DNA of 64,000 bases from contig VXQT01000032.1 in the NCBI GenBank assembly GCA_009838915.1, positions 11,016 through 75,015 of the forward strand, read 5' to 3'. This document shows, one piece after another, positions 49,503-63,364 of the stretch (positions are counted from its first letter, which is position 1; each line of letters begins with the position of its first letter). The notes beneath the pieces are model-generated. The model was not told the DNA's origin. It did not search any database and saw only the letters and a list, made by a program, of their open reading frames with translations. The stretch comes from Chloroflexota bacterium (GTDB taxonomy: Bacteria > Chloroflexota > Dehalococcoidia > Bin125). The position numbers and the translations under genes were made by a program.

Positions 49503-50264
49503 CTACCAGATGGGCGCGCTAAAGAGATCGGGCAGGGCGGGTGCGAGCGCAATGCCGAGGAGCAGCGCGAGCACTTCGCTCAGCTCGTTGACCGCGCCGT
49601 AGGCGTCTCCGGTCATGCCGCCGAGCTTGCCCACGAGCCAGCGTCCCAGGCCCAGCGCCGCGACCGAGACCGCGCCGAGCAGGACGAGTCCGCCGGGTCC
49701 GAGGAAGACAACCGACGCCGAAACCGCCGTGAGCAACCCCATGGCAACGTGCCACGGTGGACCGTCCTGCTGCAGCGAGGCGCCTACGCCCTGGGCTCGC
49801 GCGTAGCGGAAGGCGACCATGGTCAGCAGCATGCCGAATCGTGAGAGGACGGGAAACGCCAGCAGGAGGCCGATGCGCGCGTCGTCGGGCGTGCTCGCGA
49901 GCAGGCTCCACTTCACCGCGATCAGCGCCGCGCCGCCGATCACGGCGAAGGCGCCAACGTGCGTGTCGCGCAGGATGCGCAGTCGATCCTCGGCCGTGTA
50001 TCCACCGAAGAGGCCGTCGCAGCAGTCGAGGAATCCCTCGGCGTGAAGCGCACGGGTCAGGATCAGCAGCGCGCAGAGCAACAGCGCCCCGATGACGATC
50101 GGCGGCAGTCCCTCGCGAGCGGCGGCGTCGAGTCCGACCAGGGCCGCGCCCAGGGCGAGTCCGACGAAAGGAAACCAGGCGCGCGCCGCGCTGCCCGGCG
50201 GCTCGCCGGCCGGCGTGACCGGCAGGATCGTGAGGAAGCCGAACGCGTGCCGCAGGCTGTTCAC
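49503..50264 (-). CDS. cobS: Adenosylcobinamide-GDP ribazoletransferase (cobalamin synthase)
   Basis: AFGFLTILPV motif and a polytopic membrane protein. GTG 50264 overlaps the cobT stop (GTGA). The ORF-track start at 50330 would overlap cobT by 70 nt. Confidence 0.85.
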   Translation of the reverse strand: MNSLRHAFGFLTILPVTPAGEPPGSAARAWFPFVGLALGAALVGLDAAAREGLPPIVIGALLLCALLILTRALHAEGFLDCCDGLFGGYTAEDRLRILRDTHVGAFAVIGGAALIAVKWSLLASTPDDARIGLLLAFPVLSRFGMLLTMVAFRYARAQGVGASLQQDGPPWHVAMGLLTAVSASVVFLGPGGLVLLGAVSVAALGLGRWLVGKLGGMTGDAYGAVNELSEVLALLLGIALAPALPDLFSAPIW

Positions 50265-51328
50265 TCGCGAGGCTCGTTCGTCGCGTCCGAGACTCCCGCC
50301 TCTCCGAACGTGGCCATCTCGTTGAGGCAAGCGGCCGCCGCATCCACGATGCCCATGGCCAGCAGTGCGCCCGATCCCTCGCCGAGCCGCATGTCGAGAT
50401 CAAGCAGCGGCTTCAGCCGTAACTGTTCCAGGGCGATGCCGTGTCCGCGCTCCGCCGAGCGATGGCCGGCAATCAGATAGTCGCGGCTCATGGGCACAAT
50501 CGACTGTGCGACGAGCGCAGCCGCAGCCGTGATGAATCCGTCCAGCACGACGGGCGTACGCCGCGAGGCCGCGCCCAGCACGACCCCGGCCAGGACGCCA
50601 ATCTCGAATCCGCCGAGTGTGCGCAGCACGTCCACACCGTCCGTCGGATCAGGCCGGTTAACGGCAATCGCCTGTTTGACCACGGCAACTTTCCTGGCAA
50701 GCTGTTCATCGCTGCGCGACGCGCCTCGCCCAGTGACGTTCTCTGCCGGACGTCCGCAGAGCACCGAGACTACTGCTGCGGCTGAGGTCGTGTTGGCGAT
50801 GCCCATGTCTCCGACGCCGATGATGTCGTCGTAGGCCGCCGCGGCGCGCGCGATCCTGGCGCCCGCGTCGAGCGCCGTTTCAGCCTGCTCCAGCGTCATC
50901 GCCGGGCCTTCAGCGATGTTCTGCGTTCCGAATCCCAGCCGCAGCGAGACCAGCTCGTCCGAGGGACCGACCGGCACGGCGACTCCGGCGTCGACGATGG
51001 TCAGATCGACGCCGGCTCGCTGCGCCAGCGTGTTCACGGCCGCGCCACCCTGGAGGTAGTTCTGCACCATCTGCGCAGTGACTTCTTGCGGATAGCTGCT
51101 CACGCCGCTCGCTGCGACGCCGTGATCGGCGGCAGCCAGGATCAGCTTCTTGCGATAGGCGCGCGGATGCTCGTCGCCTTGCATGCCGGCTAGCAGGATT
51201 GACAGCTCCTCCAACCTTCCCAGGCTGCCCGGCGGCTTCGTCAACTGCCGCTGGCGCTGCTCCGCCGCCGTCATGGCTTCGCGGTCGAGCGGTTCGATGA
51301 TCCGGAGGATGTCGTCGAGCATGATCAT
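50261..51328 (-). CDS. cobT: Nicotinate-nucleotide--dimethylbenzimidazole phosphoribosyltransferase
   Basis: LTKPPGSLGRLEEL and GDMGIANTTSAAA motifs. Confidence 0.9.
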   Translation of the reverse strand: MIMLDDILRIIEPLDREAMTAAEQRQRQLTKPPGSLGRLEELSILLAGMQGDEHPRAYRKKLILAAADHGVAASGVSSYPQEVTAQMVQNYLQGGAAVNTLAQRAGVDLTIVDAGVAVPVGPSDELVSLRLGFGTQNIAEGPAMTLEQAETALDAGARIARAAAAYDDIIGVGDMGIANTTSAAAVVSVLCGRPAENVTGRGASRSDEQLARKVAVVKQAIAVNRPDPTDGVDVLRTLGGFEIGVLAGVVLGAASRRTPVVLDGFITAAAALVAQSIVPMSRDYLIAGHRSAERGHGIALEQLRLKPLLDLDMRLGEGSGALLAMGIVDAAAACLNEMATFGEAGVSDATNEPRE

Positions 51329-51347
51329 CTCAAGAGACCCGCGCTCC

Positions 51348-51929
51348 CTAGAACTCGATGCCCGGCTGGGCCTTGATCCCCTGATCTTCGAACGGATGCT
51401 TGATCAGTGTCATCTCGGTAACCAGATCGGCGTAGTCGATCAGTTCCTGCGGCGCGTAACGGCCGGTGATGATCACGTGCATCGCCTCGGGACGCTGCTT
51501 GAGCGTCTCGATCACATCGCTCACGGCGACCCACTCGTAGTGCATCGCATAAGTGAACTCGTCGAGCACGATCAGGTCTTCCTCGCCCGCCAGGATCGCC
51601 TGCTTGCAGCGCTCCCACTGGGCGACGGCGAGGGCCGTCGTCTCGTCCATGTCCTTGGACAGCCAGGTGAAGCCGTCGCCCAACGACTCGATCGGCAGGC
51701 CGATCCGCTCGGCCGCGCGATGCTCGCCGAAGCGGGCGGTCGAGTGCTTGATGAACTGGAACATGCGCACGTTGAAGTCGCGGCCCCAGGCGCGGAAGAG
51801 CACGCCGAGCGCAGCCGTCGTCTTGCCCTTGCCGTCGCCTGTGTTGACGATCACCAGTCCGCGACGCACACGCGGACCTCGAGGCGCGGGCCGTTCCGGC
51901 GCCTGACCGGGATTCCTAGCTGATGACAC
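51348..51929 (-). CDS. cobO: Cob(I)yrinic acid a,c-diamide / cob(I)alamin adenosyltransferase
   Basis: GLVIVNTGDGKGKTTAALG P-loop and the LDEFTYA motif. Confidence 0.88.
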   Translation of the reverse strand: MSSARNPGQAPERPAPRGPRVRRGLVIVNTGDGKGKTTAALGVLFRAWGRDFNVRMFQFIKHSTARFGEHRAAERIGLPIESLGDGFTWLSKDMDETTALAVAQWERCKQAILAGEEDLIVLDEFTYAMHYEWVAVSDVIETLKQRPEAMHVIITGRYAPQELIDYADLVTEMTLIKHPFEDQGIKAQPGIEF

Positions 51930-52854
51930 CGGCGGCCTCGCTCTCGTCGCGGCGCGGAATGCCGGCTTCCCGCGCGGACGCAGTCTCGCCGACGCCGAGA
52001 TCCGCGTCGGGCTCCTCGTCCACTGCGGCGATCAGGCTGACCATCAGCGCACCCGTCGCGGGGTCGCGATGAATCTCGGAGCGAACGCCGAAGGCGTCTT
52101 CAATCGTCCCGGGCGTCAGCACCTCTGCCGCAATGCCCTCGGCCAGGACCCGACCCTCGGCCAGCACGACGAGCCGATCGCAGAAGCGGGCGGCGAGATT
52201 GAGATCGTGGATCGCGGCCACTGCCGTCAGTCCATCGTCAACGAGCCGGCGCACCAGCGACATGATCTTGAGCTGATGCAGAATGTCGAGGTTAGAGGTC
52301 GGCTCGTCCAGCAGTAGAACTCTCGGCTCCTGCGCCAGCGCGCGGGCGATGAAGACGCGCTGGCGCTCGCCGCCCGAGAGCGTGTCCAGCGTCCGTTCGG
52401 CAAAGCGATCGGTCTCGGTCAACCGCATCGCCTCGCCTGCGATCCGGTCGTCGTCTTCGCCCTCGACTTGCAGCCGTCCGAGGTGCGGATAGCGGCCCAT
52501 CAGCACCAGCTCGAACGTCGTGAATCCCTGTGTGTAGGGCGCGATCTGCGGGACCAGCGCCAACGTTGACGCGATCCGCTTCGCGCCCAGAGTGCGCAGA
52601 TCCTCGCCTTCAAGACTGATCGCCCCTTGCTCAATCTTGAGCACACTGGAGATGGCGCGCAACAGCGTCGACTTGCCCGCGCCGTTTGGACCGATCAGTC
52701 CCACGAACTGTCCGCGTCTGGCCTGCAGATCGACACGGTCGAGCAGCCGCTTGGCCTCGACGCTGAACGAGACCGCTTGCGCATCGATCGCGGACGGCGA
52801 CGCGCCGTTGGGCGTACTCACAGACCGTTCTCCCTTCGGCGGCGCGTCGGTCAC
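51916..52854 (-). CDS. ABC transporter ATP-binding protein (FecE/BtuD-like)
   Basis: Walker A GPNGAGKST, signature LSGGERQRV, Walker B LLLDEPTS. Downstream of a B12 riboswitch. Confidence 0.88.
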   Translation of the reverse strand: MTDAPPKGERSVSTPNGASPSAIDAQAVSFSVEAKRLLDRVDLQARRGQFVGLIGPNGAGKSTLLRAISSVLKIEQGAISLEGEDLRTLGAKRIASTLALVPQIAPYTQGFTTFELVLMGRYPHLGRLQVEGEDDDRIAGEAMRLTETDRFAERTLDTLSGGERQRVFIARALAQEPRVLLLDEPTSNLDILHQLKIMSLVRRLVDDGLTAVAAIHDLNLAARFCDRLVVLAEGRVLAEGIAAEVLTPGTIEDAFGVRSEIHRDPATGALMVSLIAAVDEEPDADLGVGETASAREAGIPRRDESEAAGVIS

Positions 52855-53939
52855 AGCGAATAGACCTGTCGCTTATTGCGGATCAGCAAGAAGATGAAGA
52901 ACGGCGCGCCGACGAACGCGGTCAGTACGCCCAGGCGGAACTCCGCCGGCGCGATGATCGTGCGCGCCACCGTGTCGACGGCGAGGACGAACACCGCGCC
53001 GCCCAGGGCGCTCATGGGAATCAAGACCCGATTGTCCGGGCCCAGCAGCAGACGCATGATGTGCGGAATGACCAAGCCGACGAATGCGATTACGCCGCTG
53101 ACGGCCACCGCAGCGCCGGTCGCCAGCGCGGCCGTGACCAGCAACAGCACCCGCATCCGACCGACCCGCACGCCCATCGAGCGCGCCTCGTCGTCACCCA
53201 GCATCAGCAAGTTCAGGTCGCGAGACAGCAGCAGCAGCAGGAACGCGCTGCCGAGAATCAGCGGCGACGCGATCCTGGCGTGGTCCCAGGACCGCGAGTC
53301 GAGTCCGCCCGCGAGCCAGAACAGCACTTCGCGCAGCGCCTCGTTGTCAGGCAGGAACAGAATGATCGCCGAAACCACGGCGCCGAGAAACGCGTTGATC
53401 GCGACGCCGGCCAGCAGCAATGTCGCCATCGAGAATCGGCCGCCGATCGCTGCGATCGCGTAGACGAGGAACGCGGCCGCGATCGCGCCGACGAAGGCGA
53501 ACACCGGCAGCGCCATCAGGAACAGCGCCGCCGCCCCCGTTGAGATCGCCACCACCGCCCCCAGCGCGCCGCCGGCCGAGACGCCGATGATCCCCGGATC
53601 GGCCATCGGATTGCGGAACAGCCCCTGCATCGTCGCGCCAGCCACGCCCAGGGCGATACCCACCGACGCTCCCACCACCAGCCGCGGCAGGCGGATCTGT
53701 TCAATGACCAGTTGCTCGGTGCGCCCGAAGTCGGGCACGTCGATCCCAAGTGGCGAGAACAGGATCCAGGCGACATGCGTGAGCGGAATCTCGACCGGAC
53801 CAAGGCCGAGCGAGACCAGCCCGACGACAATCACCAGCGCGAGCAGCGCCACAGTACCGACAGCAAGCCGAGTGCCAACGCCCATCCGGCGGTAACCGCG
53901 GAGCGTCGGTCGGCGAGACATCCAGGAGGGAGGCGACAT
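52851..53939 (-). CDS. FecCD-family ABC permease (BtuC-like)
   Basis: Polytopic FecCD pattern (RLPRLVVGASVGIALGVAGATMQGLFRNPMADPGIIGVS). The start is uncertain (ATG 53939 or 53921). The ORF-track start at 54062 abuts the riboswitch. Confidence 0.85.
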   Translation of the reverse strand: MSPPSWMSRRPTLRGYRRMGVGTRLAVGTVALLALVIVVGLVSLGLGPVEIPLTHVAWILFSPLGIDVPDFGRTEQLVIEQIRLPRLVVGASVGIALGVAGATMQGLFRNPMADPGIIGVSAGGALGAVVAISTGAAALFLMALPVFAFVGAIAAAFLVYAIAAIGGRFSMATLLLAGVAINAFLGAVVSAIILFLPDNEALREVLFWLAGGLDSRSWDHARIASPLILGSAFLLLLLSRDLNLLMLGDDEARSMGVRVGRMRVLLLVTAALATGAAVAVSGVIAFVGLVIPHIMRLLLGPDNRVLIPMSALGGAVFVLAVDTVARTIIAPAEFRLGVLTAFVGAPFFIFLLIRNKRQVYSL

Positions 53940-54067
53940 TCCGGCAACGGCCAACGAGAAACCTCCAGCGTCTCCGCTAGAGGTTGTGGGTTCGACCTGA
54001 CCGGCGCTTCCGCATTCGGAGCCCGGAGATCGAGGGACCTCTCTACTGCGGAGAGTTGTCACCTCAT

Positions 54068-54297: not shown

Positions 54298-55008
54298 TCA
54301 GTCGATGCCCAGCACGCCATAGTGACCATCGAGGATCAGACGGACCGAGACGTACACGCCCACCATCGGAATCAGGATCCAGACCGCGTTGGGGCCGAGC
54401 AGGTATATGTAGAAGTCTCGTGCCGTGAGCAACCGTCGCTTCTGTCCGACGAAGAAACTGACCAGGTAGAGCGAGGACGCATAGACCCACTGCCAGAAGA
54501 GCATCGCCCCGACGATGCCGGCAGCCATCGCCGGTATCACCCCCCCGGTGTAGGCCGCGTACAGCATCAACGTCGGCGCGATCGTCACGAACCCGTTGCC
54601 GATATCGATGTTGAATCCGTATGTGTTCCGATCCGCGTAGGCCGAGTCGAACATCGAGTAGGTCGCCCAGACTTCGGCCCAGACCGTGGGCGAGAACGCG
54701 CGCCGCAATGGCACCCGGCCAGTCAGGAACACGAGGGCGGGCGTGCGGCCGCCGTCACGCTGCCACTCACTCCAGTGCTCCGCGCGTCGCTCGATCTGGT
54801 CGCGGCGGAGGTACAGGCAAATCTCCCAGTAGCAGATCAGCAGATTGATTGAGAAGAACAGGCTGAACAGGAAGTGGAAGGCGTCCAGTCCGTCATGCAA
54901 CGCGTAGCGGACGGCGATCCCGGGCAGCGCCAGGAGCACGATTGCGAGCACGCCGAGCAAACCCGCGGGCGCGCTCCATCTTCCCGGTTGCTCGCTGGCT
55001 TCGGTCAA
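54298..55008 (-). CDS. EBP/EXPERA-like 4-TM membrane protein, candidate sterol C8(9)->C7 isomerase
   Basis: 236 aa and about 4-5 TM. WATYSMFDSAYADRN resembles the EBP segment WKEYAKGDSRY, and YIYLLGPNAVWILIPMV resembles the EBP segment FVFMNALWLVLPGV (human EBP recalled from memory). Divergent from the sterol operon. Confidence 0.45.
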   Translation of the reverse strand: MTEASEQPGRWSAPAGLLGVLAIVLLALPGIAVRYALHDGLDAFHFLFSLFFSINLLICYWEICLYLRRDQIERRAEHWSEWQRDGGRTPALVFLTGRVPLRRAFSPTVWAEVWATYSMFDSAYADRNTYGFNIDIGNGFVTIAPTLMLYAAYTGGVIPAMAAGIVGAMLFWQWVYASSLYLVSFFVGQKRRLLTARDFYIYLLGPNAVWILIPMVGVYVSVRLILDGHYGVLGID

Positions 55009-55189
55009 TCTGCCCGACCTCCCTCAGGCCGAAACTCAACCCCGCGCTCGCTGCCAAGCAGGTGTGCAGGATAGCGCTGCGCCATTGGCGCTCGACGAAC
55101 ATCTGCGTCGTCTTGAAGCTCCCAAACGCACGCCCTATTGTCTGGTACATATTCCACGGCGACGACCGAGCGCCCTCTCCGGGAGCCGA

Positions 55190-56284
55190 ATGGCCTCAGA
55201 CGCACTAGCCAGCCCAACCGACACTGCCGAACCTCCGGTGCTGCTGACCGGAGCCGCCGGACATGTCGGCGCCAATCTCGTGCGCCGCTTGCTTGACGAC
55301 GGCGTCCGAGTTCGAGTGCTGCTCAGGCCGGAGGACAACAACGAGTCCGTGGAGGGACTGGACGTCGAGCGCGCCTATGGCGACATTCGTGACCTGGAAG
55401 CCACCAGGCAGGCGATCGCCGGTTGTCACCGCGTCTATCACACCGCCGCGCTCGTCTCGACCATCGACGGCGACGACGCCCATCGCCGCGACGTGTTCGA
55501 ATCGAACGTGATCGGCACCCGCAACGTGCTCCAGGCCGCACGGGAAATGGAAGCTGGACGCGTCGTGGTTACCGGCTCGTTCAGCGCTGTCGGATACGAC
55601 CTGGACGACTCCTCTATTCCGACGAGAGAAACGATGCCGTTCTATCCGATGGAACGCACGATGCCCTACGAGCGCAGCAAGGCGATGGTCGAAACCGAAT
55701 GCTGGCATGCAGCGGCGGGCGGACAGGACGTGCTAATCGCCACGTCGTGCGCGGTTGTCGGCGGCAACGATTTCTTTCCGTCCAGAATGGGGAGAACGCT
55801 GTGCGACTTCGCCAATCGCAAGCTCCATGCCTATGTCGACGGCGGGTTCGAGTTCGTCGCGGCGCATGACATCGCAGAGGGCCACGTGCTCTGCATGGAG
55901 CGCGGAAGGTCAGGGCAGAAGTACATCTTCAGCTCCGAGTATCAGACGATTTCCGACATGCTGGATCACTTCCAGGCGGTCACAGGTGTCAAGCGTCCGC
56001 GTCGACAGATACCGCTCGGACTGATGCTCCCGTTCGCCGAGCTGTCGAGCCGCATGCTCAGCCGCTTCTGGCCGAGTTATCCGCAGCGCTTCACCCCCGG
56101 CGCGATCCGTCTGTTGCAGCAATGTCGACACGCCGACACGAGCAAGGCGAAAGAGGAACTCGGGTTCCAGCCGACCACGATTCGCAGCGCAGTCCAGGAT
56201 GCCTACGCGTTTCACTATCGGCGCGAGGCGATCACCAATCCGAACGCCATGCGCCCGGAAGCGCTGACTGCGGGAAGCGAATAG
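55190..56284 (+). CDS. Extended SDR, 3-beta-HSD/NAD-dependent epimerase family (SdmB-like candidate sterol C-4 decarboxylating dehydrogenase)
   Basis: LLTGAAGHVGANLV Rossmann motif and catalytic YERSK (YxxxK). First gene of the sterol operon. Start taken at MASDAL (ATG 55190). Confidence 0.6.
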   Translation: MASDALASPTDTAEPPVLLTGAAGHVGANLVRRLLDDGVRVRVLLRPEDNNESVEGLDVERAYGDIRDLEATRQAIAGCHRVYHTAALVSTIDGDDAHRRDVFESNVIGTRNVLQAAREMEAGRVVVTGSFSAVGYDLDDSSIPTRETMPFYPMERTMPYERSKAMVETECWHAAAGGQDVLIATSCAVVGGNDFFPSRMGRTLCDFANRKLHAYVDGGFEFVAAHDIAEGHVLCMERGRSGQKYIFSSEYQTISDMLDHFQAVTGVKRPRRQIPLGLMLPFAELSSRMLSRFWPSYPQRFTPGAIRLLQQCRHADTSKAKEELGFQPTTIRSAVQDAYAFHYRREAITNPNAMRPEALTAGSE

Positions 56285-56339: not shown

Positions 56340-57449
56340 ATGAGCATCGAGACGCAGCCCCGCACGGACGGTCCACCGACGGCGGAAGACGCCGCCAATC
56401 TGCGCCAGCAAGCACGGGCGGTGGGGATGAACCCCGACTATTGGTACGCCGTCGAGGAAGTGCGCAACGTCAAGCCGGGCTCGGTGACAGAAGTCGTCTT
56501 CTGGAAACAGTCGATCGCCCTCTTCCGCTCCGAGGACGGGTCGTTTCACGCGATGGAGAATCGCTGCCTGCATCGCCAGGTCAAACTCTCGCTCGGCGAA
56601 GTTGAGGGCTGCAGGCTCGTCTGCGGCTACCACGGCTGGGGATACGACGAGGAAGGGCACGTTGTCGACATTCCGGACCTGTTCGGACGCACCAAGGTCC
56701 CGAGGCTCTCGGTGCGTTCGTATCCCGTACAGGTTCGTTACGGGTTGGTCTGGATCTTTCCCGGCGATCCGGCGCTGGCCGAGGAACGGCGGATTCCCGA
56801 GATTCCCGAACTCGAGGGCCCCGGACGCTGGGCTTGCGTGCCACTCAGGTTCGATCTCACCGCCCATCACTCGATCATCATCGACAACGTCAGCGACTTT
56901 TCCCACGCCTACCTGCACCGACAGTATCGACCGTTCGACGGCGCCACGCTGACCCGCCATGAGACGATCGGCGACAACGTGCACCTCGCCTACGAGACGC
57001 GCGTGGGCCGCGGACGCATCTCCGGCAAGTTCGTCGATCACGGCCGCCTCAACACCAATCACATGGAACTCTGTTACGAGTATCCCTATCAGCGCTCCAA
57101 CACCGACGACGAGATCAAGCACTGGCTCTTCGTGCTGCCGATCGACGAACGCACCACGCGGACGTTCTTCCTCTTCTACTTCCAGTCGCTCAAAATTCCG
57201 CTGTTACCGGTCCGCATTCCCCGCTGGGCAATGACCACAGTGTTGCGCCTGGCGAACCGGATGCTGATCGGGCCGCTGCTCTCACAGGACCGCTGGGCGG
57301 TGGAGGCGGAGCAGGCCGGCTATGAGCACAACTGGGACGCTCCGCCGATCGAGGTCAACCCGGTCGTGCGCTCATTCCAACAGGTGACGGTGCGCAAGTG
57401 GCGCGAACACCTGGAGCGCGAGGCGGCCGTGAACGCGAACGATGCCTGA
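56340..57449 (+). CDS. Rieske [2Fe-2S] non-heme iron oxygenase (SdmA-like candidate sterol C-4 methyl oxidase)
   Basis: Rieske ligands CLH (56565-56573) and CGYH (56622-56633). The catalytic domain has DNVSDFSHAYLH. Sits between the SDR and sterol reductase genes. Confidence 0.6.
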   Translation: MSIETQPRTDGPPTAEDAANLRQQARAVGMNPDYWYAVEEVRNVKPGSVTEVVFWKQSIALFRSEDGSFHAMENRCLHRQVKLSLGEVEGCRLVCGYHGWGYDEEGHVVDIPDLFGRTKVPRLSVRSYPVQVRYGLVWIFPGDPALAEERRIPEIPELEGPGRWACVPLRFDLTAHHSIIIDNVSDFSHAYLHRQYRPFDGATLTRHETIGDNVHLAYETRVGRGRISGKFVDHGRLNTNHMELCYEYPYQRSNTDDEIKHWLFVLPIDERTTRTFFLFYFQSLKIPLLPVRIPRWAMTTVLRLANRMLIGPLLSQDRWAVEAEQAGYEHNWDAPPIEVNPVVRSFQQVTVRKWREHLEREAAVNANDA

Positions 57450-58539
57450 CATCCCCTCGGCCTGGACGTCGGTGTCCGGCCAGCATGTGCTCGAAGCTGC
57501 GGCGCTCTTCGCTGGGTTCGTCGCCATCTTGCTGTTGGGCTCGAAGGTGCTGCCGGGACGCAAGCAGGATGGACGGCCGGACCCCGAAGGCGTCACACGC
57601 ACCTACCATCTCAACGGTCTCACGCTGTTCCTGGTCGTCATGCTGGTTGCGGTGCTGGGCGAAGTGTTCAATCTGTTCTCGCTCTCGATCTTGCACAGCC
57701 ACTTCGCCGAGCTGTTCATCGTCGCCAACGTTTTCGCCTGTGCGATGTCGCTGGGACTGTACTGGCAAGCGTCGCGCACCGAAGAGCAGTCACCCGGATT
57801 GCTGCGAGGCATCTTCTTCGGCCGACAGCTCAATCCGACCTGGTTCGGAGTCGATCTGAAACTGTTCAGCTATCGACCGTCCTTGATCGGCCTGGCCCTG
57901 TTCAACGTCTCATTCGCTGTCGTTCAGTGGGACGCGAACGGCGGGCTCTCGTTACAGATGATTCTCTACCAGGCCTTCACCCTGCTGTACGTATTCAACT
58001 ACTTCCAGTTTGAGTATGGAATGATCTACACGTGGGACATTGTCGCCGAGCGGTTCGGCTGGATGCTGGCCTGGGGCGATTATGTGCTGGTGCCGTTCTT
58101 TTACTGTCTCGGCGGCTGGTGGGTGCTTGAGGCAACGGGCTCATTGCACAGCGTCGCGGCGGCGGCGATCTGCGTACTGTTCGTTGTGGGATTCACGATG
58201 TTTCGCGGCGCAAACGAACAGAAGCATCGATTCAAGCAGGACGCCGAGGCATCGATCTGGGGACGGCCGGCCGAATCGCTCGAAGGACGCCTATTGGTAT
58301 CCGGGTTCTGGGGCCTAGGCCGACATCTGAACTACACCGGTGAGATCTGCGTGTACTTTGCCTGGGCCCTGACCACCAGCTTCGCCTCGTGGATACCGTT
58401 CGCCTTGCCCGTGTGGCTGACAGCGCTTCTCTGGCATCGATCGCGGCGCGATGACCGACGCTGCCGCCTCAAGTACGGCGAGTTGTGGCAGCGCTACACG
58501 CAGCGGGTGCCCCACGCCTTGATTCCGCGCGTCTACTAG
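57442..58539 (+). CDS. ERG4/ERG24-family sterol reductase (probable sterol C-14 reductase)
   Basis: Polytopic. GANEQKHRFK, GLGRHLNYTGEI and LWHRSRRDDRRCRLKYGELWQRY are hallmark motifs of eukaryote-type sterol reductases. 8-nt overlap with the upstream gene. Confidence 0.8.
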   Translation: MPDIPSAWTSVSGQHVLEAAALFAGFVAILLLGSKVLPGRKQDGRPDPEGVTRTYHLNGLTLFLVVMLVAVLGEVFNLFSLSILHSHFAELFIVANVFACAMSLGLYWQASRTEEQSPGLLRGIFFGRQLNPTWFGVDLKLFSYRPSLIGLALFNVSFAVVQWDANGGLSLQMILYQAFTLLYVFNYFQFEYGMIYTWDIVAERFGWMLAWGDYVLVPFFYCLGGWWVLEATGSLHSVAAAAICVLFVVGFTMFRGANEQKHRFKQDAEASIWGRPAESLEGRLLVSGFWGLGRHLNYTGEICVYFAWALTTSFASWIPFALPVWLTALLWHRSRRDDRRCRLKYGELWQRYTQRVPHALIPRVY

Positions 58540-58544
58540 ACTCG

Positions 58545-59960
58545 ATGCCTGAGGATCTTCCGAGGACTGCGATGGTTCAACTGCGCGATGCTCCCACGGC
58601 GACACCGGAAGCCCGACCGATCCCGGTGCTCGGTGGCGGCGCGCCCCTGCTTGGCCACCTCTGGGAGTTCCAGCGAGATCCCGTAGCGATGCTCGAGCGT
58701 GGACGCCGCGAGTTGGGCGATCTGTACCAGTTCAGCCTCGGACCGCGAAAGTTCGCGCTCTTTTCCGGACCCGACGCGCACGACGCCTTCTTCAGCGCGC
58801 CCGAAGATCAACTGAATGCCAAGGCGGTCTACCAGTTCACGGTCCCTATCTTCGGCCGCGGCGTCGCCTACGACGTGGCGCCGCAGATTATGGACGAACA
58901 GCTGGGATTCCTGTATCCGGCGCTGCGCGAAGCCGCGATGCAGCAGTTCGCCCGGATCATGTTCGAGGAGACCTCGCTGCTCGCCGACTCGATGGGCGAC
59001 TCGGGCGTGATCGACCTGCCCGAGACGATGAATCGGCTCACGGTCAACATCGCCAGCCGCAGCCTGATCGGACAGGAAGTCCGCGACCAGGTCGACGCCG
59101 GTTTCGCCGACGCGTATCACGATCTGCAGAAGGGCATCAACACGCTGGGGTTCTTTCTGCCTCGGTTGCCCACGCCGGCGCACCGCAGCCGCGACCGCGC
59201 GCGCCGGCGGGTGGCCGACCTCTTCGGCCGGATTATGAGCGCGCGGCGACGCGCGGAGCATCGTCCCGACGATTTCATGCAGTCGCTCATGGAGGCCGCC
59301 TACAGCGACGGCCGTTCCCTGAGCGACGATGAGATCACCGGCATTCTGCTGACGGTCCTGTTCGCCGGCCAGCACACAAGCGCCGTGCTCGCTACCTGGA
59401 CGGGCCTGGAGCTGCTTAGGGCGTCCTCCTACTCGGACCGGGTCAGGGACGAGACGCGCGACATCTACGGCGGTTCGGGCGAAATGAACCTTGAAGGCCT
59501 GAAGCAGCAGGTGACCACGGAACATGCCGTGCGCGAGTGCGAGCGACTGCATCCCCCGTTGATCATCCTGATCCGCAAGGTGCTCAGGACGATGCGCTAC
59601 GGCGATTACACAGTGCCGGCTGGCGCAATGGCCATGGTCTCGCCGGCGGTCTCCCATCGGCTGCCGCACCTGTTCGATGAGCCCGACCGCTTCAATCCCG
59701 ACCGCTTCGCTCCGCCGGCCCGCGAGGACAAGCAGCATCCCTACGCCTTGATCGGATTCGGCGGAGGCAAGCACCGCTGCATGGGTAAGCACTTCGCCGA
59801 GATGCAGGTCAAAGCGATCTGGACCGTGCTGCTGGATCGCTTCGAGTTCAGTCTCGACACCGAGTTTCCCTCGCCCAACTACGGCAGTTGGGTGACGGGT
59901 CCGGTCACCCCCTGCCGGCTCCGCTATCGGCGCCGCTCGCAGGGAAGCGTGTTCCGGTGA
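58545..59960 (+). CDS. cyp51: Cytochrome P450, CYP51-type sterol 14-alpha-demethylase
   Basis: Heme loop FGGGKHRCMG (59757-59786) and I-helix FAGQHTS. The N-terminal GHLWEFQRDPVAMLERGRRELGDLYQF...YQFTVPIFGRGVAYD parallels M. tuberculosis CYP51 as I recall it. Start at ATG 58545, with 58572 as an alternative. Confidence 0.8.
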   Translation: MPEDLPRTAMVQLRDAPTATPEARPIPVLGGGAPLLGHLWEFQRDPVAMLERGRRELGDLYQFSLGPRKFALFSGPDAHDAFFSAPEDQLNAKAVYQFTVPIFGRGVAYDVAPQIMDEQLGFLYPALREAAMQQFARIMFEETSLLADSMGDSGVIDLPETMNRLTVNIASRSLIGQEVRDQVDAGFADAYHDLQKGINTLGFFLPRLPTPAHRSRDRARRRVADLFGRIMSARRRAEHRPDDFMQSLMEAAYSDGRSLSDDEITGILLTVLFAGQHTSAVLATWTGLELLRASSYSDRVRDETRDIYGGSGEMNLEGLKQQVTTEHAVRECERLHPPLIILIRKVLRTMRYGDYTVPAGAMAMVSPAVSHRLPHLFDEPDRFNPDRFAPPAREDKQHPYALIGFGGGKHRCMGKHFAEMQVKAIWTVLLDRFEFSLDTEFPSPNYGSWVTGPVTPCRLRYRRRSQGSVFR

Positions 59961-62900
59961 CGGATGGCGATATCGGCCGTTATGACGTAGCGATCGTCGG
60001 CGCCGGGCCGGTCGGCAGCGTCTGCGCGATTGCTCACGCGCGCAAGGGCTACCGGGTCGCGCTGTTCGAGGCCAATCCGGCGGCGTCCAAGCGGCTGGCC
60101 GGCGAGTGGCTGCATCCTCCCGCCGTGCGGGTCCTGAGTGAACTCGGCATCTCCGTCGAGGGCGAGGTGCCAAGCACCTCGGGCGAAGGCTTCGCCGTGT
60201 TTCCCGAGGACGGCCGGGAGCCGATCGTCCTCCCATATGCCGACGGATCGCGCAGCCTGGTCTGCGAACACGCTGCCCTTGTCTCGCACCTGCGCCAGGT
60301 CGCCGGCAACGAGCCGGGCGTCGATCTGCGAGTCCACGCTCGCGTGCGCAGCGTCGAGGACGGGCGGATCACGTTCATGCAGGATGGCGTGGAACACACC
60401 GCTCTCGCTGAGCGCATCGTCGGTGCGGACGGGCGGTCGTCCGTCGTCCGACGATCCCTGGGGCTGAGCACGCAAACAAGAACCTGTTCGCGGATGATCG
60501 GGCTGACGCTCAAGGAGGTGGACTTGCCCCTGGAGGGCTACGGCCACGTCCTCAGCGGCGCGCCCGGTCCAATGCTGATCTACCGGCTGAACGAAGACAG
60601 TATCCGTGCGGTCATCGATATCCCACTTGACCTCTCGCCCCACGAGTGGAAGCGCCTGCTCTCCGACTCGTACGCACGTTGGGTTCCGGAGCCGCTGCGC
60701 CCCGCATTCCTCGATGCATGTACGGACGAGCGATTTGACGCCGCCGCCAATGTCGTCAGCCCGCGACTCACGTACGGAACCTCCCGCCGCGTGCTGATCG
60801 GCGACGCGGCGGGACACTACCACCCGCTGACCGCGACCGGGATGACACTGGGCTTCGGCGACGCGTTCGAACTGGCGGAGGGCGAGGAGTTCAGCGACTT
60901 CCGAAACCACCGATTCGAAGCCACGCGTGTGCCCGAGCTTCTGGCAATGGGCATCTACGAGGCCTTTGCCGATCAGCGGGTCGAAGGGACCGCCCTGCGC
61001 CAGGCAATGTACAGCCGATGGCGAGCCAGTTCCGGTGTGCGGGGCCGCACCATGCGGCTGCTCGGTTGTGAAGACACGAGGATTCGCAGCTTGAGTCGCG
61101 AGTTCTCGACGACGGTGCTCTGGGCGCTCCGGGCGAGACTGCCAAAGTCGTTCAGTCCCAACGCCTGGCGCGAGTATCGCGATGTCGCTCGGGGATTGAG
61201 CAATCGCCTGGCCTGGCTGCTGCGGGCCGCATGGCACCTCTACAGCGTCAGACGCGCAGGCGGGACCGGAACCGAACGCCCCACCGAGGCGCTCGCCCGC
61301 GCCTTCTTGACCTCAATGCCTTCAGGATCGCCGGCCCCGGATCGCACCGAGCAGCCTGGCGAGATCGAAGTAGACGCGCCCGATGCGAGCTTGGCCGTCC
61401 AGCGCGCCGTCGAGCGGCTGCTCAACCTCCAGACGGAGGACGGCGGCTGGGAAGGCGAGATGGTCTGGTGCCCGATGATCACGGCCCAATGGGTGCTGCT
61501 CCAGCACATCCTTGGTCGCCCGATCGACCCCGACCGTCGGCGCCGCCTGCTGCGCTACTTCGAGCAGTCGCGACTGGCCGATGGCCAATGGGGTCTGCAC
61601 GATCACTCCGCTCCGCACCTGTTCGTCACAACCCTGGTCTATGTCGCCGTCCGGGTGTTGGGCATCGAGCGGGACGATCCGTTGATTGCACCGGCGCTCC
61701 GCTTCATCCAGGCGGAAGGCGCGCTGGGCATCCCGAGCTGGGGCAAGTTCTGGCTGGCGCTGCTCAATCTCTACGACTGGGACGGACTCCACCCGGTACT
61801 GCCCGAGCTGTGGAGCTTGCCCCGCCGACTGCCGCTGCATCCCTCCAAGTGGTACTGCCACACGCGACTGATCTACATGGCCATGGCCGCGATCTTTGCA
61901 CGTCGATTCCAGGCGGCCGTGACGCCGTTGATCGGTTCCCTGCGCGAGGAGCTGTACCCCCAGGGCTACGAGACCGTCGACTTTCCTGCCGCCCGCAGCC
62001 GACTGCGCACGGCCGACCTGTTCGCCGCGCCGACGGTCTGGCTGCGAACTCTGTATCGCGGCGCGCAGCTTGTCCAGCGATTCCACCTCCCCCGCCTGCG
62101 CGAGCGGTCGGTCGACGCAATGGTTGAACAGATCAAATGGGAGTTGAACACCACCGACCACACCAGCATCTCGCCGGTCAGCGGACTGCTCAACATCCTC
62201 GCGCTGTGGTTGCACGATCCCGAGGATCCCGATGCGCAATGCGCCCTGGAGCAGGCCGAGCTCTGGTTCTGGGAAGACGAACAGCGCGGCGCGCGCCTGA
62301 CCGGCGCAAAGAGCGCCTCATGGGACAGCGGATTCGCGCTCCAGGCGCTCGCGACCGCAACCCACATCGAGGGCGTCCCCGACGCGCTTGAACGCGGACG
62401 CGAGTACCTGGGCCGCCAACAGATTGTCGCCAGTTTCCCCGGCTACCGCGAGGCCTATCGCAACGATCCGCAAGGCGGCTGGTGTTTCGCCGAGCGATGG
62501 CATGGCTGGCCCGTATCCGACTGCACGGCCGAAGCCGTGCTCGGCATCGTCGCCGCCGATCGCGCGTCGGGCGCAGATCCGGCCGGCACGGACGCGCTGC
62601 GCGACGGGGTGCGCTTCATGCTGCGCGCGCAGAATCGCGACGGCGGCTTCGGCAGCTACGAGGCGCAGCGCTCACGCTTCGATCTCGAACGCATCAATCC
62701 CGCCGAGATGTTCGGCGAGTCGATGACCGAACACTCGTACGTCGAGTGCGCCGCCTCGTGCATGGCGGCGATCGCCGCGTGGCGCAGGGCGGCGACTGCC
62801 GCCGGCCGCGAGCACGCGCCGAACGCCGTCGACGCGGATGCCGAGCGCGCCCTCGAGCGCGCCGACGCCTGGTTGCGCCGCACTCAAGGTGACGACGGCT

Positions 62901-63364
62901 CGTGGCGCGGCGTCTGGGGCGTGCAGTACATCTACGGCACCTTCTTCGGCATCCGAGGCCTGCTCGCCGGTGGTGCACCACCTGGAGATCCGGCGCTGCG
63001 ATCCGCCTGCCGCTGGCTGCTGGATCGGCAGCGTGACGACGGCGGCTGGGGGGAGCACCACAGCGGCTGCCTGAGCGGACAGTACGTCCCGCACGACGAG
63101 AGCCAGGTGATCCAGACCGCCTGGGCGCTAATCGCATTGCTCGAAGCGGGCGACGAACACTGGAGCGCCATCGCGCGAGGCGCGCGCTTCCTGGTCGATA
63201 GTCAATGCGAGGACGGCGGCTGGGCGCGCCAGGACATGGCCGGCGTCTTCTTCCGCACCGCCCTGCTCGACTACGTCCTCTACCGCCAGTACTTCCCGCT
63301 GCACGCGCTCGGACTCTACGAAGCCCGGCGAACTGCCCGCCACGTTGGATTGAACGACGGATAG
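59957..63364 (+). CDS. Fusion protein: squalene monooxygenase (N-terminal) + oxidosqualene cyclase (C-terminal)
   Basis: Single uninterrupted frame. The N-terminal half has YDVAIVGAGPVGS, GEWLHPPA, VGADGRSS and IGDAAGHYHPLTATGMT (squalene epoxidase pattern). The C-terminal half has QW-type repeats (LQTEDGGW, RAQNRDGGFG, RRTQGDDGSW, DRQRDDGGW, SQCEDGGW) and VSDCTAE at 62519-62533. GTG 59957 overlaps the cyp51 stop (GTGA). Confidence 0.8.
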   Translation: MTDGDIGRYDVAIVGAGPVGSVCAIAHARKGYRVALFEANPAASKRLAGEWLHPPAVRVLSELGISVEGEVPSTSGEGFAVFPEDGREPIVLPYADGSRSLVCEHAALVSHLRQVAGNEPGVDLRVHARVRSVEDGRITFMQDGVEHTALAERIVGADGRSSVVRRSLGLSTQTRTCSRMIGLTLKEVDLPLEGYGHVLSGAPGPMLIYRLNEDSIRAVIDIPLDLSPHEWKRLLSDSYARWVPEPLRPAFLDACTDERFDAAANVVSPRLTYGTSRRVLIGDAAGHYHPLTATGMTLGFGDAFELAEGEEFSDFRNHRFEATRVPELLAMGIYEAFADQRVEGTALRQAMYSRWRASSGVRGRTMRLLGCEDTRIRSLSREFSTTVLWALRARLPKSFSPNAWREYRDVARGLSNRLAWLLRAAWHLYSVRRAGGTGTERPTEALARAFLTSMPSGSPAPDRTEQPGEIEVDAPDASLAVQRAVERLLNLQTEDGGWEGEMVWCPMITAQWVLLQHILGRPIDPDRRRRLLRYFEQSRLADGQWGLHDHSAPHLFVTTLVYVAVRVLGIERDDPLIAPALRFIQAEGALGIPSWGKFWLALLNLYDWDGLHPVLPELWSLPRRLPLHPSKWYCHTRLIYMAMAAIFARRFQAAVTPLIGSLREELYPQGYETVDFPAARSRLRTADLFAAPTVWLRTLYRGAQLVQRFHLPRLRERSVDAMVEQIKWELNTTDHTSISPVSGLLNILALWLHDPEDPDAQCALEQAELWFWEDEQRGARLTGAKSASWDSGFALQALATATHIEGVPDALERGREYLGRQQIVASFPGYREAYRNDPQGGWCFAERWHGWPVSDCTAEAVLGIVAADRASGADPAGTDALRDGVRFMLRAQNRDGGFGSYEAQRSRFDLERINPAEMFGESMTEHSYVECAASCMAAIAAWRRAATAAGREHAPNAVDADAERALERADAWLRRTQGDDGSWRGVWGVQYIYGTFFGIRGLLAGGAPPGDPALRSACRWLLDRQRDDGGWGEHHSGCLSGQYVPHDESQVIQTAWALIALLEAGDEHWSAIARGARFLVDSQCEDGGWARQDMAGVFFRTALLDYVLYRQYFPLHALGLYEARRTARHVGLNDG

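Follow-up and report, generated by a model that had tools for sequence, protein, structure and literature searches.

The 64,000-nucleotide stretch analyzed here (the window; GenBank assembly GCA_009838915.1, contig VXQT01000032.1, positions 11,016 to 75,015) comes from a Chloroflexota sponge symbiont of the class Dehalococcoidia and contains a sterol biosynthesis operon. Divergent from this operon lies a gene for a membrane protein that resembles human emopamil-binding protein (EBP), the sterol delta8-delta7 isomerase. Judged from its predicted structure, this EBP-like protein almost certainly belongs to the EXPERA (EBP/TMEM97) fold superfamily, a membership that we take as established. Its relatives form a separate family, found here in bacteria, that lies beyond the reach of the Pfam model. 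The EBP fold, four of the five residues of the EBP cavity and a three-way linkage to sterol genes together make a sterol nuclear double-bond isomerase of the delta8-delta7 type, acting in the adjacent pathway, the simplest reading, to which we give an even chance. The operon type itself has already been published. The new part is a histidine-free bacterial variant of EXPERA/EBP, which is a good candidate for the delta-8 to delta-7 step.

The original prediction, made by eye from the sequence, described a 236-amino-acid polytopic protein. The open reading frame is present, on the minus strand (which the prediction had not given), and five transmembrane (TM) helices are predicted, at residues 15-38 (TM1), 43-67 (TM2), 130-155 (TM3), 160-187 (TM4) and 196-227 (TM5), together with an extra helical stretch at 69-100 and a motif helix at 107-117. 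An AlphaFold2 model, built from 114 input sequences without templates, reached a predicted local distance difference test score (pLDDT) of 95.1 and a predicted template modeling score (pTM) of 0.91. When this model was compared to the PDB with Foldseek, the best match was human EBP (8w0r_A; E value, 2.9e-3; probability, 1.0; TM-scores, 0.65/0.71; root mean square deviation [rmsd], 3.6). A second EBP entry, 6oht_A, followed, and all matches outside these two had TM-scores of at most 0.27. VIA-align, run against 48,161 representative chains, likewise ranked EBP first (6oht_A; Z score, 15.9; rmsd, 2.7; 179 of 206 residues aligned), above the Z score of approximately 13 at which the tool warns of helical bundles. 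The sigma-2 receptor TMEM97 came second (7m93_A; Z score, 11.3), and the next match scored only 8.0. The top two matches of the model are the two solved EXPERA proteins.

Human EBP (EC 5.3.3.5; PDB 6OHT, 6OHU, and 8W0R; PF05241) and the EBP-like protein have in common the five-helix fold, the WxxYxxxDxxY motif helix and an NxxWxxxP motif in TM5, as well as their place in a delta-8 sterol pathway. Unlike EBP, the EBP-like protein has TM2 separated from the motif helix by a helical insert of approximately 30 residues, lacks an equivalent of His76, falls below the Pfam threshold, occurs only at loci of bacterial metagenome-assembled genomes (MAGs) among those fetched and is also present in genomes where no oxidosqualene cyclase (OSC) was found. 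TMEM97 (PDB 7M93), a four-helix protein known to bind ligands and sterols rather than to act as an isomerase, shares the EXPERA core (151 residues aligned, model residues 39-231) but lacks the first helix that the EBP-like protein and EBP have in common. The ERG2-type C-8 sterol isomerases (PF04622), known from fungi, would catalyze the same proposed reaction and are an unrelated protein family.

At the sequence level, the family counts 404 proteins among 5.8 billion searched and 266 among 1.84 billion cluster representatives. Among the 120 family proteins listed, Pfam domains are absent, and the only names, given to five, are all "hypothetical"; the best match, a 236-amino-acid protein from a Chloroflexi MAG, is 96% identical to the EBP-like protein and bears the same label. 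The window protein had no match in NCBIfam and no relevant match by sequence in the PDB, and its identity to human EBP is approximately 14%. Three profiles of the family differ in breadth: A1, made of close homologues; A2, of 63 diverse members with 21 to 96% identity to the window protein; and A3, of 114 sequences and gappier. A1 had no match in the PDB. The sole PDB match of A2 was human EBP (6OHT; E value, 0.061), with both motifs in register and A2 positions 103-223 aligned with 6oht_A chain positions 103-221, which are EBP residues 95-213 (EBP numbering was taken from the chain offset and agrees with the residues named in PMC6549186). When the 63 members were scanned singly, 13 reached the Pfam EBP model at an E value of <1 (best, 0.0029), whereas any other family was reached by at most two members. 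Ten divergent members scanned in the same way came no closer (best E value, 0.041), and no family member in 11 genomes passed the PF05241 gathering threshold of 25.7 bits. Of 30 feature neighbors in the ESM Atlas, 23 came from one family set whose listed cluster has PF05241 on 20% of its members.

Both motifs that had been singled out by eye are in place, WATYSMFDSAY (residues 114-124) and NAVWILIP (residues 207-214). Their resemblance to EBP goes beyond chance: they form nearly invariant columns in a family of more than 400 proteins, and the profile aligns them with WKEYAKGDSRY and NALWLVLP of EBP. The polar cavity of human EBP is formed by His76, Glu80, Glu122, Asn193 and Trp196; His76 is the proposed proton donor, and both His76Ala and Glu80Ala are inactive (PMC6549186). 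In the A2 profile alignment, W114, Y117, D121 and Y124 correspond to EBP W101, Y104, D108 and Y111; D135 and N138 to E122 and T125; Q173, Y176 and Y181 to Q158, Y160 and Y165; and N207, W210 and P214 to N193, W196 and P200. Three of the cavity residues, Glu122, Asn193 and Trp196, are thus matched by D135, N207 and W210, with Asp in place of Glu at the first, and the alignment suggests that E62 is probably the equivalent of Glu80. Across the 63 diverse members, D121, N138, Y181 and W210 are invariant. N55, E62, Y117, Y124 and D135 are kept in 62 (the exception at D135 being Glu), W114 and Y176 in 61, and N207 in 60.

The predicted divergent pairing with the sterol operon is borne out as well, as the EBP-like gene starts at 55008 on the minus strand and the sdmB-like reading frame opens at 55064 on the plus strand. 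The family was found in 316 GTDB species genomes, and 80 loci, all from MAGs and all bacterial, were surveyed. Sterol operon genes lie beside the EBP-like gene in 21 of the 80, all of them from Chloroflexota and all with sdmB divergent. In a Gammaproteobacteria MAG (L081), the EBP-like gene comes directly after ERG24 in the same orientation. In a Longimicrobiales MAG (L044), the gene, flanked by a transposase and an IS21 element, stands beside sdmA-ERG24-CYP51-SE/OSC (the last a fused squalene epoxidase/oxidosqualene cyclase) and a sterol methyltransferase (SMT) gene. Clustering with sterol genes is conserved, in three arrangements from three phyla. In L044, the bracketing insertion sequences (a DUF772 transposase at L044:7985-9457 and an IS21 integrase/IstB pair at L044:10898-13020) suggest recent mobility of the gene. 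Divergent from the ERG24/EBP-like pair of L081 is a gene for a flavin amine-oxidase-family oxidoreductase (L081:7353-8711, minus strand), which could be sterol modifying.

The composition of the operon suggests which substrate the EBP-like protein would receive. By the criterion applied to MsbE in PMC7074536, a Val two residues before the Asp in WPVSDCTAE, the SE/OSC is of the lanosterol-synthase type as far as its motif tells. A role of the EBP-like protein as a cyclopropyl-sterol isomerase was considered and is unlikely because of this lanosterol-type Val in VSDCTAE. We infer the substrate, reaction and proton relay as follows. The SE/OSC would make lanosterol, from which CYP51 and ERG24 would take off the C-14 methyl group and reduce delta-14, and SdmA and SdmB would demethylate C-4. 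The operon product should accordingly be a C-14/C-4 demethylated delta-8 sterol, the classical EBP substrate. This sterol would enter the membrane cavity of the EBP-like protein and be protonated to a C-8 carbocation, stabilized by Trp210, whose deprotonation would yield the delta-7 isomer. With no histidine conserved in the family, an isomerase would have to base its proton relay on the conserved carboxylates; we place it on Glu62, Asp135 and Asp121, with Asn138 and Asn207, in place of the His76-Glu80-Glu122 triad of EBP.

The delta8-delta7 reading applies to genomes without another candidate isomerase, and the organism's own genome (2.87 Mb, 95% complete) and those of 10 OSC-bearing relatives were checked for a competitor. 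The own genome has neither a canonical EBP (PF05241) nor a match to ERG2 (PF04622). Canonical EBP is likewise present in none of the 10 relatives, whose best weak PF05241 matches are mostly the EBP-like family itself. The best PF05241 match of the own genome (C33; E value, 0.016) was rejected as a chance match to a complex I/Mrp antiporter-type subunit near an SMT gene.

Clusters with the same content and order as the window operon (sdmB, sdmA, ERG24, CYP51, fused SE/OSC) have been described from sponge symbionts as msbA-F (Mohanty et al. 2020, PMC7074536), as the CSGs, which occur in 115 of 537 Ircinia MAGs with purifying selection and horizontal transfer reported (Kelly et al. 2022, PMC9531527), and as the SMT clusters that Brown et al. 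2023 list in Supplementary Data 1 (PMC10070321). No C-8 isomerase is reported for this cluster type (PMC10070321 Supplementary Data 1; PMC7074536), and the genes at both ends of msb are said to bear no resemblance to sterol genes (PMC7074536). The EBP-like neighbor is therefore an undescribed part of these clusters, and no paper describing its family was found in the open-access text. The broader claim of the original prediction, that C-8 isomerization has no clearly assigned gene in bacterial sterol producers, needs qualifying: a C-8 isomerization homologue is mentioned in a Calothrix cluster (PMC10202945), and ERG2-type (PF04622) homologues are reported in myxobacteria (PMC8237579). ERG2 is also mentioned a single time, without detail, in PMC9531527.

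Several observations weigh against the delta8-delta7 isomerase, and our confidence is held down because the histidine is missing and because many carriers have no detectable OSC or CYP51. When compared directly to Pfam EBP/EXPERA (PF05241), the window protein reaches an E value of only 0.58 (11 bits), far under the cut-off. With the larger A3 profile, the EBP match in the PDB is lost altogether, which makes the sequence evidence alone marginal. The predicted homology to EBP/EXPERA thus holds by the fold, by a weak but specific profile match and by the language-model neighbors, and not by a significant direct Pfam match. E62 falls on Glu80 by a gapless extension of a weak TM1-TM2 alignment (-1.1 bits) and is insecurely placed. 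By the same extension, position 58 falls on His76, and it is Ile or Val in 61 of the 63 members; no conserved His column was found in any tabulated helix or motif of these 63. Absence of a profile match, or of the acidic, His and Trp catalytic residues, had been named as grounds to abandon the prediction. Half of this applies: the direct Pfam match and a counterpart of His76 are lacking, whereas the acidic residues, the Asn and the Trp are retained.

The genomic evidence adds to these points. No C-5 desaturase of the FA_hydroxylase type, which would use the delta-7 product, was found in the own genome. Of 21 genomes in which the EBP-like gene is unlinked, seven were matched by the cyclase query (67 to 77% identity; open frame of at least 1,151 amino acids), one of which is L044, with its operon within 10 kb. 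In the other 14, the query gave only matches of 29 to 42% identity or none. Co-occurrence with OSC is therefore incomplete. In addition, the CYP51 query had no match in 14 of 15 OSC-negative carrier genomes (the 14 and one more). With both queries negative, de novo synthesis of a delta-8 sterol is therefore not the source of substrate in these unlinked carriers. To our knowledge, isomerase activity is not established for EXPERA members such as TMEM97, and we know of no sterol profile of a carrier organism.

The constant partner of the EBP-like gene is instead a reductase of the ERG4/ERG24 type (PF01222), also where neither OSC nor CYP51 was found; all 15 OSC-negative carriers have at least one such gene. 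The EBP-like family occurs in seven of 251 genomes sampled evenly from the window's class, Dehalococcoidia, each with PF01222, and a further 20 have PF01222 without the EBP-like gene. Within the window's genus, five genomes have both genes and four have neither. Among 201 Gemmatimonadota genomes, PF01222 is present in 11, all of which carry the EBP-like family, and in none of the 187 noncarriers. Three more matches to the family profile in this phylum come without PF01222: a whole gene, a gene split over two frames and a discounted 43-residue match. The split gene (G396:C3:864975-865698) may be a frameshift or a pseudogene. PF01222 matched none of 14 control genomes. The pattern recurs in two phyla, with several others also showing it; because related genomes are not independent, no P value is given for these counts.

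This pairing brings in a different role, in which the EBP-like protein is a sterol-remodeling enzyme, partnered with an ERG4/ERG24-type reductase, that works mainly on sterols of the sponge host rather than on the canonical biosynthetic delta8-delta7 step. Its reaction could be another double-bond migration, or an isomerization that feeds or follows delta-7, delta-14 or side-chain reduction. The presence of PF01222 in 15 of 15 OSC-negative carriers, with CYP51 matched in only 1 of 15, fits such a role, as does the complete overlap in Gemmatimonadota (11 of 11), mostly with a divergent reductase paralogue that scores at approximately 1e-35. A divergent paralogue is found in the window's own genome too (C25:13326-14381), and the absent histidine hints at altered chemistry. 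However, in the genomes checked the EBP-like gene does not adjoin the reductase paralogue, the reductase occurs without the EBP-like gene in the 20 Dehalococcoidia genomes, and the window gene adjoins a complete de novo operon expected to yield a delta-8 sterol. We regard remodeling as the less likely reading, behind the delta8-delta7 isomerase and at about half its probability. On a wider scale, we tentatively propose, as a possibility of rather low probability, that the EBP-like gene has joined with the ERG4/ERG24-type reductase in a horizontally mobile pair, with which sponge symbionts from seven or more phyla, mostly without OSC or CYP51, would reshape the ring double bonds of host sterols. 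The family would then be a bacterial, histidine-free EXPERA branch, and the EBP fold would not be a purely eukaryotic invention.

The own-genome paralogue (also L085:7324-8457, minus strand) matches Pfam at an E value of 2.6e-29 and PDB 4QUV at 1.6e-33. Matches as strong are present in many of the Dehalococcoidia and Gemmatimonadota genomes sampled, some of them without an OSC found. A Candidatus Palauibacter MAG, in which the OSC query was negative, has a CYP51 that is 69% identical to the one in the window and adjoins an ERG4/ERG24-like gene (G015:C1:3344388-3347054).

The absent histidine, which is essential in EBP (PMC6549186), also bears on whether the protein is an enzyme at all. If it is not, it may be a binding protein comparable to TMEM97 or TM6SF2, with the EXPERA fold but no catalytic activity, whose task would be to sense, chaperone or traffic the operon's sterols. 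The fold is shared with TMEM97 (Z score, 11.3), and EXPERA members with a binding role exist, such as TM6SF2, for which bound cholesterol is reported (PMC13648352). Against this, the model is nearer to EBP than to TMEM97 and has the fifth helix of EBP. Moreover, across members with identities of only 21 to 45%, hardly any variation is seen in three buried carboxylates, two Asn and one Trp, a pattern more in keeping with an active site than with a groove for lipid binding. A purely binding function is accordingly improbable in our view, and the delta8-delta7 isomerase remains the favored assignment.

The 80 surveyed carriers belong to Chloroflexota, Gemmatimonadota, Gammaproteobacteria, Rhodothermales, Nitrospinota, Acidobacteriota and Binatia, and the isolate names of many are ones that we take to be from sponge sampling series. 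In a tree of 81 proteins, there is one Chloroflexota clade, and the other phyla are interleaved at short distances, a topology compatible with horizontal transfer. The operon-linked state switches at least five times on this tree. In 57 of the 80 loci, no sterol gene lies within 10 kb of the EBP-like gene. The recurrent neighbors scanned in these unlinked loci (thymidine kinase, an Hsp70-like protein, M14 peptidase and HEAT repeats) gave no lead, and for the divergent subfamilies, cluster look-ups had no informative names and one metagenome scan gave only a 1.4-kb contig.

These data raise the prospect of a membrane protein that is merely enriched in sponge symbionts, has no sterol role and came to stand beside the operon by chance or shared mobility. 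The 57 unlinked loci with their housekeeping neighbors (thymidine kinase, Hsp70-like, M14 peptidase) speak for it, and horizontal transfer among sponge symbionts seems to affect the gene as well as the sterol clusters (the tree above; PMC9531527), which alone could create co-occurrence. It is nevertheless very improbable in the face of three independent arrangements with sterol genes in three phyla, the absence of PF01222 from all 187 noncarrier Gemmatimonadota genomes and the finding that the only fold relatives are two sterol-binding proteins.

If the delta8-delta7 isomerase assignment is right, it would fill a gap in the published clusters, which end at C-14/C-4 demethylation and side-chain methylation and leave ring double-bond migration without an assigned enzyme. 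The candidate gene makes this step testable and helps to predict which sterols bacteria can make. The sterol clusters of sponge symbionts bear on whether the 24-isopropyl sterane "sponge biomarkers" have a sponge or a bacterial source (PMC10070321). An evolutionary origin of EBP inside the eukaryotes has been inferred (PMC8237579), an inference to which a bacterial EXPERA family that is widespread and linked with sterol genes is relevant. The absent catalytic histidine is also a natural experiment on the EBP mechanism. Finally, where the OSC query was negative, the EBP-like gene is accompanied almost without exception by a sterol reductase, which suggests that many symbionts do not make sterols of their own but modify those of the host.

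The features of the window to which these results refer are collected in the table below.

Table. Positions in the window of the EBP-like gene, its conserved codons and the adjacent sterol operon
Feature	Position	Strand	Remarks
EBP-like membrane protein gene	54298..55008	minus	236 aa; TTG start; gene start at 55008
Codons N207-P214 (NAVWILIP)	54367..54390	minus	Profile alignment, column counts, PMC6549186
Codons D135-N138	54595..54606	minus	Profile alignment and column counts
Codons W114-Y124 (WATYSMFDSAY)	54637..54669	minus	Profile alignment and column counts
Codons I58-E62, TM2	54823..54837	minus	Gapless extension of weak TM1-TM2 alignment (insecure) and column counts
Divergent intergenic region	55009..55189		EBP-like gene to probable sdmB-like ATG; 55 to about 180 bp
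sdmB-like gene, NAD(P)-dependent epimerase/3-beta-hydroxysteroid dehydrogenase family, C-4 demethylation partner	55064..56284	plus	Probable ATG at 55190
sdmA-like Rieske oxygenase gene	56340..57449	plus
ERG24-type (ERG4/ERG24) sterol C-14 reductase gene	57442..58539	plus	E value of 6.5e-65 to PDB 4QUV, delta-14 sterol reductase
Cytochrome P450 gene at CYP51 position of cluster	58485..59960	plus	Cluster order as in published clusters
Fused squalene epoxidase/oxidosqualene cyclase (SE/OSC) gene	59888..63364	plus	Catalytic motif WPVSDCTAE

Around the EBP-like gene, including the divergent intergenic region, a search for sigma-70-type promoter and intrinsic terminator consensus sequences was negative. 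Downstream of the gene, on the same strand, lie genes for a CobT-like phosphoribosyltransferase, an ABC ATPase and an FecCD permease (window positions 50261-54062, minus strand), and the CobT neighbor raised the suspicion of a cobalamin-related set. This flank of the EBP-like gene varies across the 21 operon-linked Chloroflexota loci, and FecCD, ABC and CobT genes are found there only in the two closest relatives. Because synteny is restricted to these two, a functional link between the EBP-like gene and these genes was rejected.

The SMT genes of the own genome lie away from the operon. Three matches to the sterol methyltransferase C-terminal domain were found, at C20:22744-22938, C22:65053-65247 and C33:147895-148065 (L084:9035-10084). 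The C22 match sits in an open frame of only 104 amino acids and may be a fragment, and the C33 match comes directly after three Proton_antipo_M genes (NADH:quinone oxidoreductase/Mrp antiporter type). Just past the sterol operon, approximately 2.7 to 5.2 kb beyond the end of the window (C12; L083:2673-5204), are genes for a XamI-family restriction endonuclease and an Eco57I-type methylase.

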